From: a virus
Lineage: Duplodnaviria; Caudoviricetes
Reading direction: 5' to 3' (one strand)
IMG/VR virus record: IMGVR_UViG_3300033516_000035
Coordinates: 1 to 25,787 of that record
DNA length: 25,787 bases
Part shown: positions 1,318 through 22,886 of the stretch, one piece after another
Position numbering within the stretch: position 1 is the first letter of the stretch
Layout: each line of letters begins with the position of its first letter
Notes under the pieces: model-generated
What the model saw: the letters and a program-made list of their open reading frames with translations, nothing else
Told to the model about the DNA's origin: nothing
Databases searched by the model: none
Program-made: the position numbers and the translations under genes

Positions 1318-1734
1318 TTATAATTTTTTTCCAATAGAATTTGCTAATATTTTAGATTTTTTAGATATGTTTTGCAAACCTCTACCTTTACCTTTTTCAT
1401 ATGGAATTTCAATTCCAAGTTCTGTATATTGTTTAGATGTAATATCTAATATAGTATTATTTTCTTTATTAAATAAGAAATAATGTGGTCCATCATCAAA
1501 ATCTTCTTTTGAAATTCTTTTTAGTGTCCAAAAATCTTTTCCACCAAATAATCTATATATAACTTCGCTTGCATAAAAACAAAATCCAGTTTCATCAATT
1601 TTTGTTTCTTTTGATTTTTCTAACCATATATCATCCAATACTTGCAATTTAACATCATCATCTTTAAATGCATTTTTTAAATCATCAATAACTGAATATA
1701 ATTCTAAATAATTAATTTTTTCCATTTTCATCAT
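1318..1734 (-). CDS. Hypothetical protein with possible papain/transglutaminase-like Cys-His-Asp triad
   Basis: 138-aa ORF with GFCFYASE ... GPHYFL ... ILDITSKQY. Overlaps the upstream gene by 23 nt. Confidence 0.6.
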   Translation of the reverse strand: MMKMEKINYLELYSVIDDLKNAFKDDDVKLQVLDDIWLEKSKETKIDETGFCFYASEVIYRLFGGKDFWTLKRISKEDFDDGPHYFLFNKENNTILDITSKQYTELGIEIPYEKGKGRGLQNISKKSKILANSIGKKL

Positions 1735-2572
1735 TATTTTTTATAAAAGTAAAAACATTATTTCCTAAATTAAAAACTTTAACATATCCATTATTTCTCA
1801 TATTATTATGAGCACTAACAGATGGATCAAAATTTTCTAATTTTTTATCTAATTCATTTTTCCAAAATCCTCTTCTATGATATATTAAATTTGTTTTTGG
1901 ATAATACCAATTAAAACCAGGTCCAGTATCTTCGTTTCTAATAAATCCTAATTTTTCATAAAAATTCCCACCACCAATCATCATATCTGAATATGATATT
2001 ACTGAATTGAATGTATAATTATTTATAAAATGTTTAAATATTTTAGTTGCACCACCAGATATTTTATATCCAGATTTACTACAATATCTCGCTAATTCAA
2101 TATCATAATTTTTAGAAAATCTTGGAACACTAAAACTCATTAATGATACTAATTCATTATTATGATATAAACCCAATTTTATTTTTGCTGCAACATAACC
2201 TTGTAGATGGTATTTTTTTAAAAATGATTTATATTCATCATTTGGAATTTCTTTAACTTCGCATTTTCTGGCATGAATTGAACAATTTGAAATATTGAAT
2301 TTATATAAAAATCTATTCCAATATATATCATAATTTTTTGACAATTCTGGTTGAAATATAAATAATGAATCAATTTTCAATTCATCTAATTTTTTCCTTA
2401 TATTATATAAGAATTTTATATTTATTGTTTTTTCATTGTATATGTTTGGATTTATTATAAATATTAAATAATTATATTCTTTAAAATAGAATTCAAATGT
2501 AATATCATCCAATATAAGATTTTCATATTTTATATTTAAATTATTTAAATCATCTTTAAATTTTTCTATCAT
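1712..2572 (-). CDS. Hef-like homing-endonuclease-family protein: degenerate Vsr/DUF559-like N-domain plus GNAT (Mom-like) C-domain
   Basis: C-domain motifs ARKCEVKEI, FL..YHLQG, LGLY...ELVSLMSF, ELARYC, GGATKIFK.F, ISYSD, YEKLGF are typical of phage Hef-like proteins. Confidence 0.75.
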   Translation of the reverse strand: MIEKFKDDLNNLNIKYENLILDDITFEFYFKEYNYLIFIINPNIYNEKTINIKFLYNIRKKLDELKIDSLFIFQPELSKNYDIYWNRFLYKFNISNCSIHARKCEVKEIPNDEYKSFLKKYHLQGYVAAKIKLGLYHNNELVSLMSFSVPRFSKNYDIELARYCSKSGYKISGGATKIFKHFINNYTFNSVISYSDMMIGGGNFYEKLGFIRNEDTGPGFNWYYPKTNLIYHRRGFWKNELDKKLENFDPSVSAHNNMRNNGYVKVFNLGNNVFTFIKNNDENGKN

Positions 2573-16512: not shown

Positions 16513-17190
16513 ATGAAATTAATTTATAATAAAGATTTATTAAATACTTATCCATATAATGGATTAAAATTATGTAAGAATGATTATGTTTTGCAAGAAG
16601 GTGAATATGAAAATAATTCATTTGATATATTAAATAATGAATTGAATGAAAATTCTTTAATTAAAATGAATTTAAAATATACACAAATAAAAGATATATT
16701 AACAACAATTGGAACAAATTTCAATTCATTGGATGAGCAAACAAAAGAAAATGTAGTTAAATTTTGTTGTATAAGTAAAACTGGTTGCACAAATTATTAT
16801 TCACAAAAAGGATTTTCAAATGATGAATGTGAAATAAAATATATTGAAAATAAAGCAGATGATTTATATTATTTAAAAAAATGCACACAATTTAATATAT
16901 CATCTAAAGAATTTACAAAAATTCTATTAACATATTTATCATATGAAAATTATGAAAAATTCATTTTTGAAATAAAAGATTTATTATTTTTATATAAAAA
17001 TTTTGAAATATATGGTAAAAAATATGGAAATTATGTTAATGGTATAATGGATTTCATAGAAGATTATGATATATATGATAATGTTGGATTATCAAAATAT
17101 TCAATCTTAAATGGAAAAACATTAAATAATTTAATATTAGAATTGAAAATAGTATTATTAAATGATGCAGATAACGATATTTTATATTAA
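16513..17190 (+). CDS. Hypothetical protein, possibly fibre-associated
   Basis: 225-aa ORF starting 16 nt after the fibre gene. No motif recognised. Confidence 0.6.
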   Translation: MKLIYNKDLLNTYPYNGLKLCKNDYVLQEGEYENNSFDILNNELNENSLIKMNLKYTQIKDILTTIGTNFNSLDEQTKENVVKFCCISKTGCTNYYSQKGFSNDECEIKYIENKADDLYYLKKCTQFNISSKEFTKILLTYLSYENYEKFIFEIKDLLFLYKNFEIYGKKYGNYVNGIMDFIEDYDIYDNVGLSKYSILNGKTLNNLILELKIVLLNDADNDILY

Positions 17191-17589
17191 TTCTAACAAT
17201 TCATTAAATCTCCAAAATATTTTATCCTTTGCTTCTTCTTTTGTTATGAAATCAGCATAATCTAATTCAGATGTTTGTAATTTCATACCATTTTGAAATA
17301 ATTTAGTTTTTTGCTCAATTGTTAATCTAACAATAAAATAATAAACTTTTTTAGTTATCTTATCATTTTTAATATATTCTACAAATCTTTCAGTTTTATC
17401 TATTAATTCTAATGGAATTTTTATTCCAATTTCTTCTTGTGTTTCCCTTATTGCAGCTTCTAAGACAGTTTCATTTAATTCAACTCCACCTTTTGGAAAT
17501 GAATATGTTCCATGCCAAGATGTATTTGTTGGATGTGCTAATAAAATTTTATTTTCACAAATAATAACCAAACCAGATGATATTTTCAT
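17182..17589 (-). CDS. NUDIX hydrolase
   Basis: Complete Nudix box GGVELNETVLEAAIRETQEEIGI. Confidence 0.92.
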   Translation of the reverse strand: MKISSGLVIICENKILLAHPTNTSWHGTYSFPKGGVELNETVLEAAIRETQEEIGIKIPLELIDKTERFVEYIKNDKITKKVYYFIVRLTIEQKTKLFQNGMKLQTSELDYADFITKEEAKDKIFWRFNELLELI

Positions 17590-17591
17590 AT

Positions 17592-18110
17592 TTAAAATTT
17601 TATTACTGAGTATTTTTTATAATTATTTGATAATTTTGTATTCAAACATTGCAATTCTAATATAAACGATAATGAAACTACATTAGCATTCAATTTTTCT
17701 ACTAATTTGCAAGCAGTTTCTGCTGTTCCACCAGTGGCTAATATATCATCATGTATATGGATATTCATACCAGGTTTTATTATTTCAGATGATAATGTTA
17801 TGATATCACTTCCATATTCTAATTCATATTCAATCTCAACATAAGGTGGTGGCATTTTTCCTTTTTTTCTAACCATGCAGAAACCAACATCTAAACCATC
17901 TGATATTCTTGATCCTAAAATGAAACCTCTTGCATCCAATCCAATAACTATATCAATATTATCATTTTTAATATTTTCAATGATATCATTAACTACAAAT
18001 CTACTTGCTGTTGGATTTGATAGTATTTTTGAAATGTCTTTAAAAATAATTCCTTTTTTTGGAAAATCCTTAACATCAACTAATAATTCTTCTAATATTC
18101 TTTTGTCCAT
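17592..18110 (-). CDS. apt: Adenine phosphoribosyltransferase
   Basis: DFPKKGIIFKDI, GLDARGFILG, VRKKGKMP, YELEYG and PRPP-binding HDDILATGGT. Confidence 0.95.
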   Translation of the reverse strand: MDKRILEELLVDVKDFPKKGIIFKDISKILSNPTASRFVVNDIIENIKNDNIDIVIGLDARGFILGSRISDGLDVGFCMVRKKGKMPPPYVEIEYELEYGSDIITLSSEIIKPGMNIHIHDDILATGGTAETACKLVEKLNANVVSLSFILELQCLNTKLSNNYKKYSVIKF

Positions 18111-18163: not shown

Positions 18164-18970
18164 TTAAGGTATTTGTAATAATGTTTTTATTTGATTATAA
18201 TTATCTGTTGCTTCCGATGGAGTTAATACACTACCAAATTCATAAAATCCATATTGTCTAAGAGTTGTTACACCTATTCTTAAATTAGTATTTGGTAATC
18301 CTGTACTTATTTTATTACTTGTAAATGTATTTCCGTCATAATAATTTGTATATTTCATAATAGATGATGATTCTCTTTGAATTTCACTGATTCCAATATT
18401 TCCATAATAATTATAATCTAAACTAGCTTGATCATTATTTACTGTAAATATAATAGCGTCTCTATCTTCACCAGAAAATACACTTAATGATATTGATGGA
18501 TTTATAGTTGATGATAATATATCAGCACCACCGTTAAAAGTTGATGTCTTAATGTATATCATACATCTTGCATTATTTTGAGTAAATATTATACCTCCAT
18601 CTGTAGATGGATTAAAGTTAGTAACTATTTCACCTGTATATGTGCACGTAACACCATCTGTACTCCATGTTGGCGAGTTCATAAAGGTTGGATTATTAGC
18701 ATTACCTATCATATTTAGTAATGAACCTTGTTGTGTTTCGCCTTGTAATATAACTACTACTTTCTTTTTAGTCCATAAACCTGATGTTTTCTGTGCTCTA
18801 ATAAATGTATCAACTCTATCTTTAAATCCAGTAGATGGTTGAGTGGTCATTCTTGCAAAATATGCTTCTGCATCTGCATCATATGTAGGTGATGGTGCTG
18901 AATCATCAAATGCAATAAATGATCCATTGTATGATAATATATTTCCATTAAATACTGAAATTTTAAGCAT
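18164..18970 (-). CDS. Hypothetical, probably virion-associated protein
   Basis: YDADAEAYFAR ... DTFIR..K.SGLW.K motif recalled from phage structural proteins, followed by a beta-rich region. ATATATA motif 15 nt upstream. Confidence 0.55.
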   Translation of the reverse strand: MLKISVFNGNILSYNGSFIAFDDSAPSPTYDADAEAYFARMTTQPSTGFKDRVDTFIRAQKTSGLWTKKKVVVILQGETQQGSLLNMIGNANNPTFMNSPTWSTDGVTCTYTGEIVTNFNPSTDGGIIFTQNNARCMIYIKTSTFNGGADILSSTINPSISLSVFSGEDRDAIIFTVNNDQASLDYNYYGNIGISEIQRESSSIMKYTNYYDGNTFTSNKISTGLPNTNLRIGVTTLRQYGFYEFGSVLTPSEATDNYNQIKTLLQIP

Positions 18971-19016
18971 ATTAATTTTTAATTTTATATATTAAAATAA
19001 TATGATTTAAATTTAG

Positions 19017-19091
19017 TAGTTCCAGTTGGATTCAAACCAATGATATTTTGCTTGTAATGCAAATGCTTTTGATCAACTAAGCTATGGAACT
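19017..19091 (-). tRNA. tRNA-Val(UAC)
   Basis: AGTTCCA/TGGAACT acceptor, anticodon arm TTTGC-AT TAC AA-GCAAA, T-loop TTTGAAT, discriminator A, followed by CTA. Confidence 0.85.
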
Positions 19092-19097
19092 ATTTAG

Positions 19098-19169
19098 TGG
19101 AGCTTGCGGTAATCGAAACCGCGTCTTCAGAATGCAAATCTGATATAATAGCCACTATATTAAAACCCC
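19098..19169 (-). tRNA. tRNA-Ala(UGC)
   Basis: GGGGTTT/AAGCTCC acceptor with the G3:U70 Ala identity pair, TCAGA-TT TGC AT-TCTGA, T-arm GCGGT-TTCGATT-ACCGC. Confidence 0.92.
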
Positions 19170-19178
19170 CCAAAATAG

Positions 19179-19249
19179 AACACCTAATTGGATTCGAACC
19201 AATATCTTAGAATCCGCATTTCTAAATTCTTCCATTGAACTATAAGTGC
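19179..19249 (-). tRNA. tRNA-Arg(GCG)
   Basis: GCACTTA/TAGGTGT acceptor, D-loop AATGGAA (A20), TAGAA-AT GCG GA-TTCTA, T-arm ATTGG-TTCGAAT-CCAAT. Confidence 0.87.
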
Positions 19250-19260
19250 ATTAAAAATAG

Positions 19261-19331
19261 AACACCCAATTGGATTCGAACCAATATCATAAAATTAGAA
19301 GTTTCATATTCTTCCGTTGAACTATGGATGC
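19261..19331 (-). tRNA. tRNA-Arg(UCU)
   Basis: GCATCCA/TGGGTGT acceptor, D-loop AACGGAA (A20), TGAAA-CT TCT AA-TTTTA, T-arm identical to the neighbouring Arg gene. Confidence 0.92.
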
Positions 19332-19337
19332 AATTAG

Positions 19338-19421
19338 AGCTGGATGTAGGATTCGAACCTACGGTGTGAAAAATCATGTAGATTACAAATCTACCTCAAT
19401 CGACCACTATGAGAATCCAGC
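19338..19421 (-). tRNA. tRNA-Thr(UGU) with long variable arm
   Basis: GCTGGAT/ATCCAGC acceptor (G1-C72, C2-G71), GTAGA-TT TGT AA-TCTAC, 15-nt variable region ATGATTTTTCACACC, T-arm GTAGG-TTCGAAT-CCTAC. 84 nt. Confidence 0.85.
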
Positions 19422-19430
19422 AAATTTTAG

Positions 19431-19503
19431 AGCAGAATATCAGATTCAAACTGATGCCTTCTGGTTGGAAGCCAGACATGCTAATCACTAACACCAATTC
19501 TGC
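19431..19503 (-). tRNA. tRNA-Gly(UCC)
   Basis: GCAGAAT/ATTCTGC acceptor, U73, TCTGG-CT TCC AA-CCAGA, T-loop TTTGAAT. Confidence 0.9.
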
Positions 19504-19511
19504 ATAATATT

Positions 19512-19545
19512 AAAACAAAAAAACCTCAACTTTTGGTTGAGGTTT
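19512..19545 (-). terminator. Intrinsic terminator (attenuator) immediately upstream of the first tRNA
   Basis: Minus strand AAACCTCAAC-CAAAA-GTTGAGGTTT-TTTTGTTTT: 10-bp stem plus U-tract, ending 8 nt before tRNA-Gly. Confidence 0.85.
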
Positions 19546-19566
19546 GTATTTTTTTATTTTTTTATT

Positions 19567-19650
19567 TTAAAAAAGACAATAATCAACCAGTATGGTGTTT
19601 TTTCCACGACCATTCACTCTTGTTCTCACTGTTGTTGTCATTTTTTTCAT
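19567..19650 (-). CDS. Putative attenuator leader peptide MKKMTTTVRTRVNGRGKNTILVDYCLF (27 aa, below the ORF-track cutoff)
   Basis: ATG AAA AAA ATG ACA ACA ACA GTG AGA ACA AGA GTG AAT GGT CGT GGA AAA AAC ACC ATA CTG GTT GAT TAT TGT CTT TTT TAA. Has an A-rich UTR and an ATATATA motif 21 nt upstream, like the other genes here. Confidence 0.75.
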   Translation of the reverse strand: MKKMTTTVRTRVNGRGKNTILVDYCLF

Positions 19651-19671
19651 AATTTTAATATTTTTATTAAT

Positions 19672-19680
19672 TATATATAT
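19672..19680 (-). promoter_or_regulatory. ATATATA promoter-like motif upstream of the leader/tRNA operon
   Basis: Same motif and spacing as found before most gene starts in this window. Confidence 0.55.
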
Positions 19681-19763
19681 TTATAATTTTTATTCGTTTT
19701 TTGCTATTTTTAATTTAGAATTCAAAAATAATAAAAAGTTTTCAAATAAAAAAATTATTTTAT

Positions 19764-20471
19764 TTAAATTTCAAAAAAATTTCTTAATGTATCTTCTAAT
19801 TCATTTATAATTAAATATTTATCAGAATATTGATCAATTAAATATATTGAACTATTTTCTGAATTGTAGAATATTTGAACCTCAAATGAATTATTTTTAT
19901 TATTAAATTTAAAATTTGATTTATTTTGAGTTATGTTTAATTTAAGATATTTTGCTAATTTATATAATGAATTTTTAATTTCATTAAAATAATCATATGG
20001 AAGTTCAAAATATATTTTTTCATCTGGATCATAAGGTTCAGAAATTTTTAAATTTAAATTATTATTTTCTTTTTTGAATATTTTTACATTGTCTGATATT
20101 TTTGAATTTTTATCTATGTTACATTTTATAAATTCACCACCTCTAACATCACCTTTAATATTTCCATTTATAAATTTTCCATTGAATATGATACCAGATT
20201 TGAATGTTCCATTATTCCAAAGTCCATTATACCAAACACCATTTTGCCAAATTCCAGCTTTCCAATTTCCACTTCTAAATACACCATAATGCCAATCACC
20301 ATTGAACCAAGTTCCAGCATTCCACACAAGAGTATTTTTAATTATTTCTAATCTTGCATTTTCTATTTCGGCTTCTATTAACCAAGTTATGTTGTTTTTT
20401 ATTAGAATTTCATTTATTTGATATTCTTTTTCATATGTATTTCCTTGAAATTTTAATTCTTTATATCTCAT
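19764..20471 (-). CDS. Hypothetical protein with (W/F)xxGx pentapeptide repeats
   Basis: WNAGT WFNGD WHYGV FRSGN WKAGI WQNGV WYNGL WNNGT FKSGI IFNGK FINGN. Confidence 0.7.
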   Translation of the reverse strand: MRYKELKFQGNTYEKEYQINEILIKNNITWLIEAEIENARLEIIKNTLVWNAGTWFNGDWHYGVFRSGNWKAGIWQNGVWYNGLWNNGTFKSGIIFNGKFINGNIKGDVRGGEFIKCNIDKNSKISDNVKIFKKENNNLNLKISEPYDPDEKIYFELPYDYFNEIKNSLYKLAKYLKLNITQNKSNFKFNNKNNSFEVQIFYNSENSSIYLIDQYSDKYLIINELEDTLRNFFEI

Positions 20472-22082: not shown

Positions 22083-22886
22083 ATGTTGGATTTAGAAAAC
22101 CTAATATATTATCACATTATACAAATGAGGAATTACCAAGAGTATGCAAAATGCAACATTGATCCTATATATTTCTTTGAAAAATATTGTGAAGTTCTAA
22201 CTGAGGATGGAATACAACCTATAAAAATTCGTTCTTTTCAAAAAGAAATTATTAAAGATTATTTTACTAATAGATTCAATATAACTGCAAATTCCAGACA
22301 AACTGGTATAAATACAGTTATTAATTTATTAATGTTATATGATGCAATTTTCAATACCGTTAAATCTATTATGTTGATAGAAGATAAATTTACTGAAGAA
22401 ATGGATATTATAATGAATATATATTTAAAACTTCCTCATTTTTTAAAACCAGGAATAGTTGAATATAATCACTCATATATACAATTTGATAATGGAAGTA
22501 TAATAAGAACGATGAGAAAAAATTGTGATCTTTCAATTGGATTTGGTGTAGATTCATTATTTTTGAATGATTTTGCTTATATTCATCCGACAATGGCGAA
22601 AAACATCATGAATTCAATGTTTCCAATAATGAAAGAATTAAAAGATTGTAAAATCTTTATATCATCTTCACCAAATGGAATAAATCATTTCACAAAACTT
22701 TTAATGGATGCAGAAAGAAAAGATGGAGATCCAAAAAAGAATGAATTTAAACCACACAGAGTGTATTGGTGGGAGGTTTCTGGTAGAGATGAACAATGGA
22801 AAAATAATGAAACATTGAAATTGGGATCATCAGATATATTTGATCAAGCATATGATTTGATGTTTTTCAAGTACAATGATATATAA
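22083..22886 (+). CDS. Terminase large subunit (T4 gp17-like) ATPase-domain-only paralog with degenerate Walker motifs
   Basis: DPIYFFEKY, RSFQKEII, SRQTGINT, LPHFLKPG, FDNGS.I, LFLNDFAYI, SSSPNG.NHF, VYWWEVSGRDEQWK. Ends where the nuclease domain would begin. Confidence 0.8.
   Translation: MLDLENLIYYHIIQMRNYQEYAKCNIDPIYFFEKYCEVLTEDGIQPIKIRSFQKEIIKDYFTNRFNITANSRQTGINTVINLLMLYDAIFNTVKSIMLIEDKFTEEMDIIMNIYLKLPHFLKPGIVEYNHSYIQFDNGSIIRTMRKNCDLSIGFGVDSLFLNDFAYIHPTMAKNIMNSMFPIMKELKDCKIFISSSPNGINHFTKLLMDAERKDGDPKKNEFKPHRVYWWEVSGRDEQWKNNETLKLGSSDIFDQAYDLMFFKYNDI

Follow-up and report, generated by a model that had tools for sequence, protein, structure and literature searches.

Attenuators and the control of tRNA supply

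The multivalent thr and ilvGMEDA leaders and the pheST leader are leader-peptide attenuators, and T-box riboswitches bind tRNA directly, without translation. In the Salmonella his leader the default of the untranslated RNA is termination (PMC4046918, excerpts), and the trn operon of an Anabaena plasmid is controlled at its promoter by the ribbon-helix-helix repressor TrcR (PMC10272220, main text). For 50 years it has been disputed whether phages carry tRNAs for codon compensation or for the replacement of depleted host tRNAs (PMC10264068, excerpts). The replacement idea, as presented in those excerpts, gives a rationale for tRNA arrays and concerns the sequence of the tRNAs, not their regulation; the string "attenuat" is absent from the main text of both PMC10264068 and PMC7162821. 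An earlier reading of the present locus, made from the letters only (the sequence-only reading), had supposed that a ribosome-mediated attenuator of a phage tRNA operon was undescribed, and searches of the open-access full-text literature yielded none and no account of leader-peptide attenuation of tRNA genes.

The DNA analyzed here, referred to as the window, is the entire IMG/VR record IMGVR_UViG_3300033516_000035, of 25,787 nt. Upstream of six tRNA genes it carries a short element that, judging from comparison and modelled folding, is very probably a ribosome-mediated transcription attenuator by which tRNA supply feeds back on these genes.

The phage and its host

The window encodes tail sheath, tail tube, baseplate hub and terminase-like matches and reads as part of a large T4-like myophage genome. 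The tail sheath fragment shares 61% identity with its counterpart in the 735-kb phage LR756501 and 52–53% with those of three 634–642-kb phages; among cultured phages, those of Tenacibaculum and Flavobacterium match it best. LR756501 and the 634–642-kb phages are, we presume, genomes of the megaphage study that predicted Bacteroidetes hosts. That prediction covers the five genomes of more than 634 kb in PMC7162821 (in part), and the host of the window phage is probably a member of the Bacteroidota, because of these tail sheath relatives and their predicted hosts.

Several other features of the window deserve mention. A homing-endonuclease-like gene (1712–2572, minus strand) sits between the tail sheath and tail tube genes, and a NUDIX hydrolase gene adjoins a phosphoribosyltransferase (adenine PRT-like) gene downstream of the tRNA block (17182–18110, minus strand). 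The terminase-large-subunit-like ORF (22083–22886, plus strand) is short (267 aa) and perhaps a partial paralogue, and a 12-nt tandem repeat encoding (DTVN)n at the contig end (25498–25787, plus strand) may be an assembly break. Contigs from two public runs are identical to the window from 19576 upstream, and either run may be the source sample. A 333-nt contig of a relative shows 31 differences over 19208–19539, with the terminator 3' arm unchanged and the Gly-Thr-Arg order kept.

Anatomy of the cassette

The sequence-only reading had placed on the minus strand, in this order, an ATATATA motif, a 27-codon ORF, an intrinsic terminator and six tRNA genes, and every element was found where it had been placed. 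The cassette begins with an AT-rich, promoter-like motif (TATAAATA overlapping ATATATATA; 19672..19685, minus strand, with ATATATATA at 19680–19672), and 22 nt further on lies the ATG (19650) of the leader ORF (19567..19650, minus strand), whose product is MKKMTTTVRTRVNGRGKNTILVDYCLF, followed by a stop. The sequence upstream of this ORF is A-rich and has no Shine-Dalgarno, and the ORF had no match in Pfam or PHROG. Next comes the predicted intrinsic terminator (19512..19545, minus strand), with a 10-bp stem, a 5-nt loop and a U tract; its hairpin (19545–19521, U tract reaching 19512) has a stability of −12.4 kcal/mol, equalled by 0 of 200 shuffles.

The six tRNA genes, supported by ARAGORN and Rfam and all on the minus strand, are tRNA-Gly (TCC; 19430..19503), tRNA-Thr (TGT; 19337..19421, 85 nt with a long variable arm), tRNA-Arg (TCT; 19260..19331), tRNA-Arg (GCG; 19178..19249), tRNA-Ala (TGC; 19097..19169) and tRNA-Val (TAC; 19016..19091). 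The Thr-TGT entries of other cassettes measure 73–76 nt in 17 of 19 cases, and the remaining two measure 84 and 90 nt. The bodies of Arg-TCT and Arg-GCG (19178–19331) are near-identical, which suggests duplication with a change of anticodon. Position 32 is A in Arg-GCG and Val-TAC, and none of the six genes encodes CCA.

ATATATA, called promoter-like by the sequence-only reading, stands no more than 60 nt upstream of the leader and of 11 of the 23 window genes (for one gene the upstream sequence is missing), and a sigma-70 scan stayed at chance level (53 vs 49.0). Transcription of the cassette is likely to start at this motif. In two related megaphages AATATATA stands upstream of most leaders, and TAnnTTTG, which we take to be the Bacteroidota −7 element, precedes 23 of the 57 leaders (families, among the loci listed), where 2.3 would be expected; a Shine-Dalgarno-like word precedes 4 of these 57, again among the loci listed.

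Codon matching in the leader

Leader codons 5–16 (19603..19638, minus strand) are, as originally read, ACA ACA ACA GTG AGA ACA AGA GTG AAT GGT CGT GGA, that is, Thr four times, Val twice, Arg three times, Gly twice and Asn once. The claim that ten of these 12 are decoded by the downstream tRNAs was borne out when the anticodons were read with standard wobble, and 11 of the 12 match the array at the level of the amino acid. It was also correct that Ala-TGC is the sole array tRNA without a leader codon: the leader contains no Ala codon despite the presence of this gene. The scarcity of GTG and CGT in the neighborhood, guessed by eye, agrees with the counts for the window genes, where GTG makes up 18 of the 328 Val codons and CGT 7 of the 191 Arg codons.

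The background share of codons read by the array tRNAs is 0.126 (7,841 codons, 23 window genes). When free choice of the 12-codon stretch is allowed for, a match of at least 10 of 12 arises in 2 of 2,000,000 simulated ORFs, and simulation with the codon mix of other leaders yields 25 of 2,000,000 that reach the match of the window leader. Over the entire ORF, 10 of 26 codons are read by array tRNAs (p = 8e-4). None of the 138 other leaders among the loci listed, scored for the tRNA set of the window, exceeds 8 of 12.

Predicted folding and the proposed switch

An element absent from the sequence-only reading, an antiterminator, was predicted in the follow-up analysis. Codons 21–27 (19569..19589, minus strand) would pair with the spacer and the 5' arm of the terminator (19555–19534) at −11.5 kcal/mol, and none of 200 shuffles was as stable. 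With the ribosome modelled as a mask that extends 12 nt beyond its codon and the nascent RNA folded, the antiterminator has a probability of 0.92–1.00 as long as the ribosome is at codons 8 to 17; once it is at codon 18 or beyond, this falls to 0.00 and the terminator forms instead; a 13-nt mask moves the predicted switch point to codons 16/17. The switch point directly follows the matched stretch, which ends at codon 16. In the equilibrium fold of the full-length RNA the terminator is favored at every ribosome position (0.96–1.00), so the switch must be kinetic, and in nascent RNA without any ribosome antitermination is predicted. A 1:2 protector pairing is present in the full-length fold; it is no stronger than in shuffles (z 0.19), and when the nascent RNA is folded the antiterminator prevails over it.

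Of the features that define an attenuator, the control-codon-rich upstream ORF is present (10 of 12 codons here, and in-frame only in 69 other families among the loci listed), a predicted intrinsic terminator lies between the leader and the genes it would control, and mask folding predicts an exclusive antiterminator that is freed or covered according to the position of the ribosome. The trp/his/thr-type layout proposed by the sequence-only reading stands for the leader, the terminator and the predicted antiterminator; a protector hairpin is not clearly evident, and the targets are tRNAs. The attenuator reading itself is strongly supported by computation, through the correct placement of the antiterminator and the covariation of leaders and tRNAs described below. 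The anatomy of the cassette and this covariation can be read in the sequence; the switch is a prediction of folding.

In the mechanism that we propose, transcription would start at the AT-rich motif and the leader would be translated, with translation coupled to transcription. A ribosome that stalls before or at codon 17 would allow codons 21–27 to capture the 5' arm and block the terminator, and slow decoding of Thr, Val, Arg and Gly codons would in this way let RNA polymerase enter the six tRNA genes; a ribosome beyond codon 18 would cover the antiterminator strand, and the terminator would form. Once the tRNAs are made the same codons would be read faster and the switch would close, with negative feedback on tRNA supply as the outcome. 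As the tRNA genes would be switched by the slow reading of their own codons, the tRNAs would be made on demand. Candidate causes of slow decoding during infection include demand, tRNA breakdown, host nucleases and starvation, and the remaining amino acids may be covered by sister cassettes elsewhere in the genome, like those seen in relatives.

Leaders of other viruses

The survey for short ORFs and terminators before phage tRNA arrays that had been suggested for this locus was run, and many other phages proved positive. Pattern scans of viral contigs covered at least 654 loci, and selection was blind to tRNA identity, asking for a hairpin and U tract no more than 60 nt away from a tRNA; the leader had to be an ATG ORF of 10–75 codons ending near the hairpin, and the most A-rich start was chosen if there were several. 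Among the loci listed, 207 sites were found (window included), 169 of them with an ORF, which gave 139 unique leaders after the 38 sites without an ORF and the duplicate peptides were left out; arrays cut by locus ends were retained. The leader stop codon lies 19–39 nt before the hairpin in 122 of these 139 (among the loci listed). Families are peptide clusters and not derived from a tree, so some shared ancestry remains in the statistics, and prevalence cannot be read from the sample because the patterns select terminator-preceded tRNAs.

The suggested check for covariation between leader codons and array tRNAs gave a positive result at the amino-acid level. In 69 families among the loci listed, not counting the window cassette, a share of 0.262 of the leader codons specify an amino acid for which the array has a tRNA, as against 0.159 for permuted pairs (0/10,000). 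Frames +1 and +2 of the same families stay at or below the null (0.127 and 0.123 vs 0.146 and 0.139), and the outcome is the same under other clusterings into 61 and 46 families among the loci listed. All 20 amino acids are commoner in leaders when their tRNA is present, 14 of them individually with p ≤ 0.05, uncorrected (loci listed). The excess of matches is nil in the last 7 codons of the leaders and highest 13 codons ahead of the stop (43 families, loci listed), a position at which a stalled ribosome would leave the 3' end of the leader free.

The leader end pairs with the arm of its own terminator at −11.1 vs −7.1 kcal/mol (0/10,000) in the 57 families among the loci listed that have a 19–39 nt gap, 12 families being dropped from this test. 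The own terminator is the best partner in 18 of the 57 and among the top three in 30 (loci listed), and a control segment further upstream shows a smaller excess of pairing (−7.2 vs −5.9; same 57 families, loci listed). The leader strand covaries with both terminator arms across six related Cys/Val/Leu cassettes.

Bacterial and archaeal loci, a small sample, had a terminator before the tRNA in 14 of 120 cases and one leader, the same as a viral one. A 7.8-kb contig in a Succinivibrionaceae bin (locus L482) carries a Cys/His/Trp leader cassette as in the viral locus L037, and is probably phage DNA in that bin. For the window leader itself no homologues were found, the nearest of the leaders listed being 30% identical. 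When the cassette was compared by Blastn with 50,697 phage records, short tRNA matches alone were returned, in 10 records; a scan for its own family gave no cassettes in 46 metagenome loci and, in 119 viral loci, seven terminator-before-tRNA sites with one leader, none homologous to that of the window. The upstream 235-aa gene has no confirmed relatives in viral contigs, and 63 homologous proteins exist.

Megaphages and cultured phages

The genomes of LR756501, LR745206, phi4:1 and phi19:1 were chosen independently of the pattern. LR756501, with 66 tRNA matches, has a matched leader and terminator before five of its seven tRNA regions, in blocks for Met/Gln/Glu/Ile; Ile/Cys/Asp/Asn/Tyr; Leu; Trp/His/Phe/Lys/Ser; and Arg/Thr/Val/Ala/Gly/Pro, and the true assignment of leaders to blocks ranks first of 120. 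The strict rule passed one of the five leaders; in the other four the terminator and the first tRNA are more than 60 nt apart, and they were accepted under a limit loosened afterwards. The last of these blocks belongs to the amino-acid class of the window, but its leader has a different sequence. In several blocks tRNA-like sequences uncalled by ARAGORN lie between the terminator and the first called tRNA (L825–L830), and three leaders have almost the same LIG motif at their ends, paired with near-identical terminators. LR745206 has seven matched cassettes across four of the five regions examined, three isolated tRNAs being left out, and its assignment ranks first of six with three testable blocks. 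No convincing cassette was seen in LR756500; CTA-anticodon tRNAs without a leader cassette, possible amber suppressors, occur in this genome (L844) and in LR756501 (L831).

Among cultured phages, Cellulophaga phage phi4:1 has three matched cassettes and phi19:1 has one. The phi4:1 leader before Pro/Glu/Gln/His/Leu/Arg tRNAs matches in 11 of 11 codons, the one before Ala/Lys/Ile/Gly/Met/Asp/Thr/Val/Arg tRNAs matches in 16 of 16 amino acids, and the third is a Tyr/Ser/Asn/Trp/Phe leader; the second has a GTG start, was found by eye and is missed by the strict ATG rule. The three blocks (L821, 5908–9769) are roughly sorted by first codon letter (C; A/G; U). Two of the leaders are unannotated and one is annotated, with a longer start, as hypothetical gp075. 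In the first leader TAnnTTTG is followed after 4 nt by ATG, as in leaderless mRNA, and block 3 ends in a pseudo-tRNA with a GCA anticodon; the leader of this block contains two TGT codons. No cassette was found in crAss001 (23 tRNAs), and PTm1 and MaF61 had no tRNA match.

What the proposed switch may sense and why

Whether the leaders respond to an amino acid or to a tRNA species can be approached through codon boxes. Where arrays read one Ser, Arg or Leu box, the leaders favor that box (21.2:10.0 vs 26.7:54.8, family-weighted codons, pooled; p = 0.0012, loci listed); under single-linkage families, which merge 32 and 80 leaders into one, the test is not significant (loci listed). Box matching is present for Ser, Ile and Leu-TAG among the loci listed, and one Leu leader has six different Leu codons ahead of five Leu tRNAs. 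The preference relative to neighboring genes (z 4.75) is overstated, because unmatched leaders are also richer in CGN, and is not relied on. It is likely, not established, from these codon counts that the leaders sense tRNA species and not just the amino acid.

The simplest alternative, that the terminator merely ends an upstream transcript while a separate promoter serves the tRNAs and the ORF is chance or a small-protein gene, may draw on the similar hairpin-plus-U-tract terminators that also follow ordinary window genes; it is nevertheless highly improbable, since it leaves unexplained the codon match, the frame specificity, the positional profile and the covariation of the antiterminator. 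The U tract is separated from tRNA-Gly by 8 nt without ATATATA, and between terminator and tRNA this motif occurs in 0 of 57 families and TAnnTTTG in 2 of 57 (loci listed). A tRNA promoter after the terminator was rejected, and a chance ORF likewise. A response to amino-acid starvation, in which the switch senses uncharged tRNA like the thr/ilv leaders and the tRNA genes are the starvation response, agrees with the amino-acid-level matching, which is the firmest signal, and with the report, in excerpts of PMC4046918, that a stalled ribosome reads the level of charged tRNA; moreover, CGN already makes up 16.2 of 29.4 Arg codons (55%) in leaders without an Arg tRNA in the array (among the loci listed), which weakens isoacceptor specificity. 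We consider this reading unlikely, for tRNAs, the genes that would be controlled, make no amino acids, and the box matching and the mixed Leu leader speak against it.

Another proposal keeps the same switch and holds that it was selected as counter-defence, detecting the nuclease cleavage of particular host tRNAs and supplying resistant replacements; it refines the attenuator reading and does not replace it. In its favor, infected hosts deplete tRNAs and the anticodon loops of phage tRNAs are altered (PMC10264068, excerpts), position 32 is A in two window tRNAs, and the leaning of leaders to the box of their own tRNAs fits the sensing of tRNA species. On the other hand, the matched cassettes span all 20 amino acids, unlike nucleases with one or few targets, phi4:1 and two megaphages split whole tRNA sets into blocks, and the switch would be blind to the difference between cleaved, uncharged and scarce tRNA, so that this purpose, plausible by analogy, is for us possible and somewhat doubtful. 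A general homeostat, which would also answer nucleases, is favored over an answer to a single nuclease because all amino acids are covered and whole tRNA sets are partitioned. With slightly more confidence, still short of an even chance, we suggest that large Bacteroidota phages may carry a modular tRNA homeostat in which blocks are gated by mini-genes of their own codons and refill whichever class the host has cleaved or run down.

If the homeostat is real, the tRNAs that fail during infection could be read off from the leader sequences, and the system would amount to a programmable, self-limiting counter-defence against tRNA nucleases. Block read-through and its timing would show which tRNAs become limiting in infection, and the question can be tested now because the cultured Cellulophaga phages phi4:1 and phi19:1 carry cassettes.

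Comparison with known systems

The nearest functional analogue is the Anabaena trn operon, a tRNA array held down and induced by translational stress (PMC10272220, in part). TrcR control acts at the promoter and has no codon specificity, the string "attenuat" is absent from the main text of that paper, and no ribbon-helix-helix repressor family was found among the window proteins scanned, which come from a 26-kb genome fragment. T-boxes (RF00230) share with the window cassette the control of an intrinsic terminator by tRNA status via an antiterminator; in the window the specificity resides in an in-frame ORF, and in T-boxes in direct tRNA binding. A T-box was rejected here, as RF00230 has no match at E up to 10 in 18900–19900, and so were the Rfam leader-peptide families, the best being Phe_leader with 25.6 bits against a cut-off of 55 (E 0.087).

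Amino-acid operon attenuators such as his (PMC4046918, excerpts) are closer in mechanism, with a short control-codon ORF, alternative hairpins and, as predicted for the window, read-through upon slow decoding. The his leader differs, in the same excerpts, in its protector hairpin and its untranslated default of termination, neither of which is evident in the window. The window leader samples four amino acids at once and those of phi4:1 up to eight, unlike amino-acid operon leaders. A strict his/trp-type attenuator controls genes that supply or activate the amino acid, and the next genes here are six tRNAs: the window cassette is phage-borne and would control tRNA genes, whereas amino-acid operon attenuators control biosynthetic enzymes or synthetases. 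On this evidence it would work like the his/trp attenuators but is not classed as one. Leader-peptide attenuation itself is known; what would be new, as far as the open-access literature shows, is tRNA genes as its target, and the attenuator reading would extend it to a closed loop on these genes.
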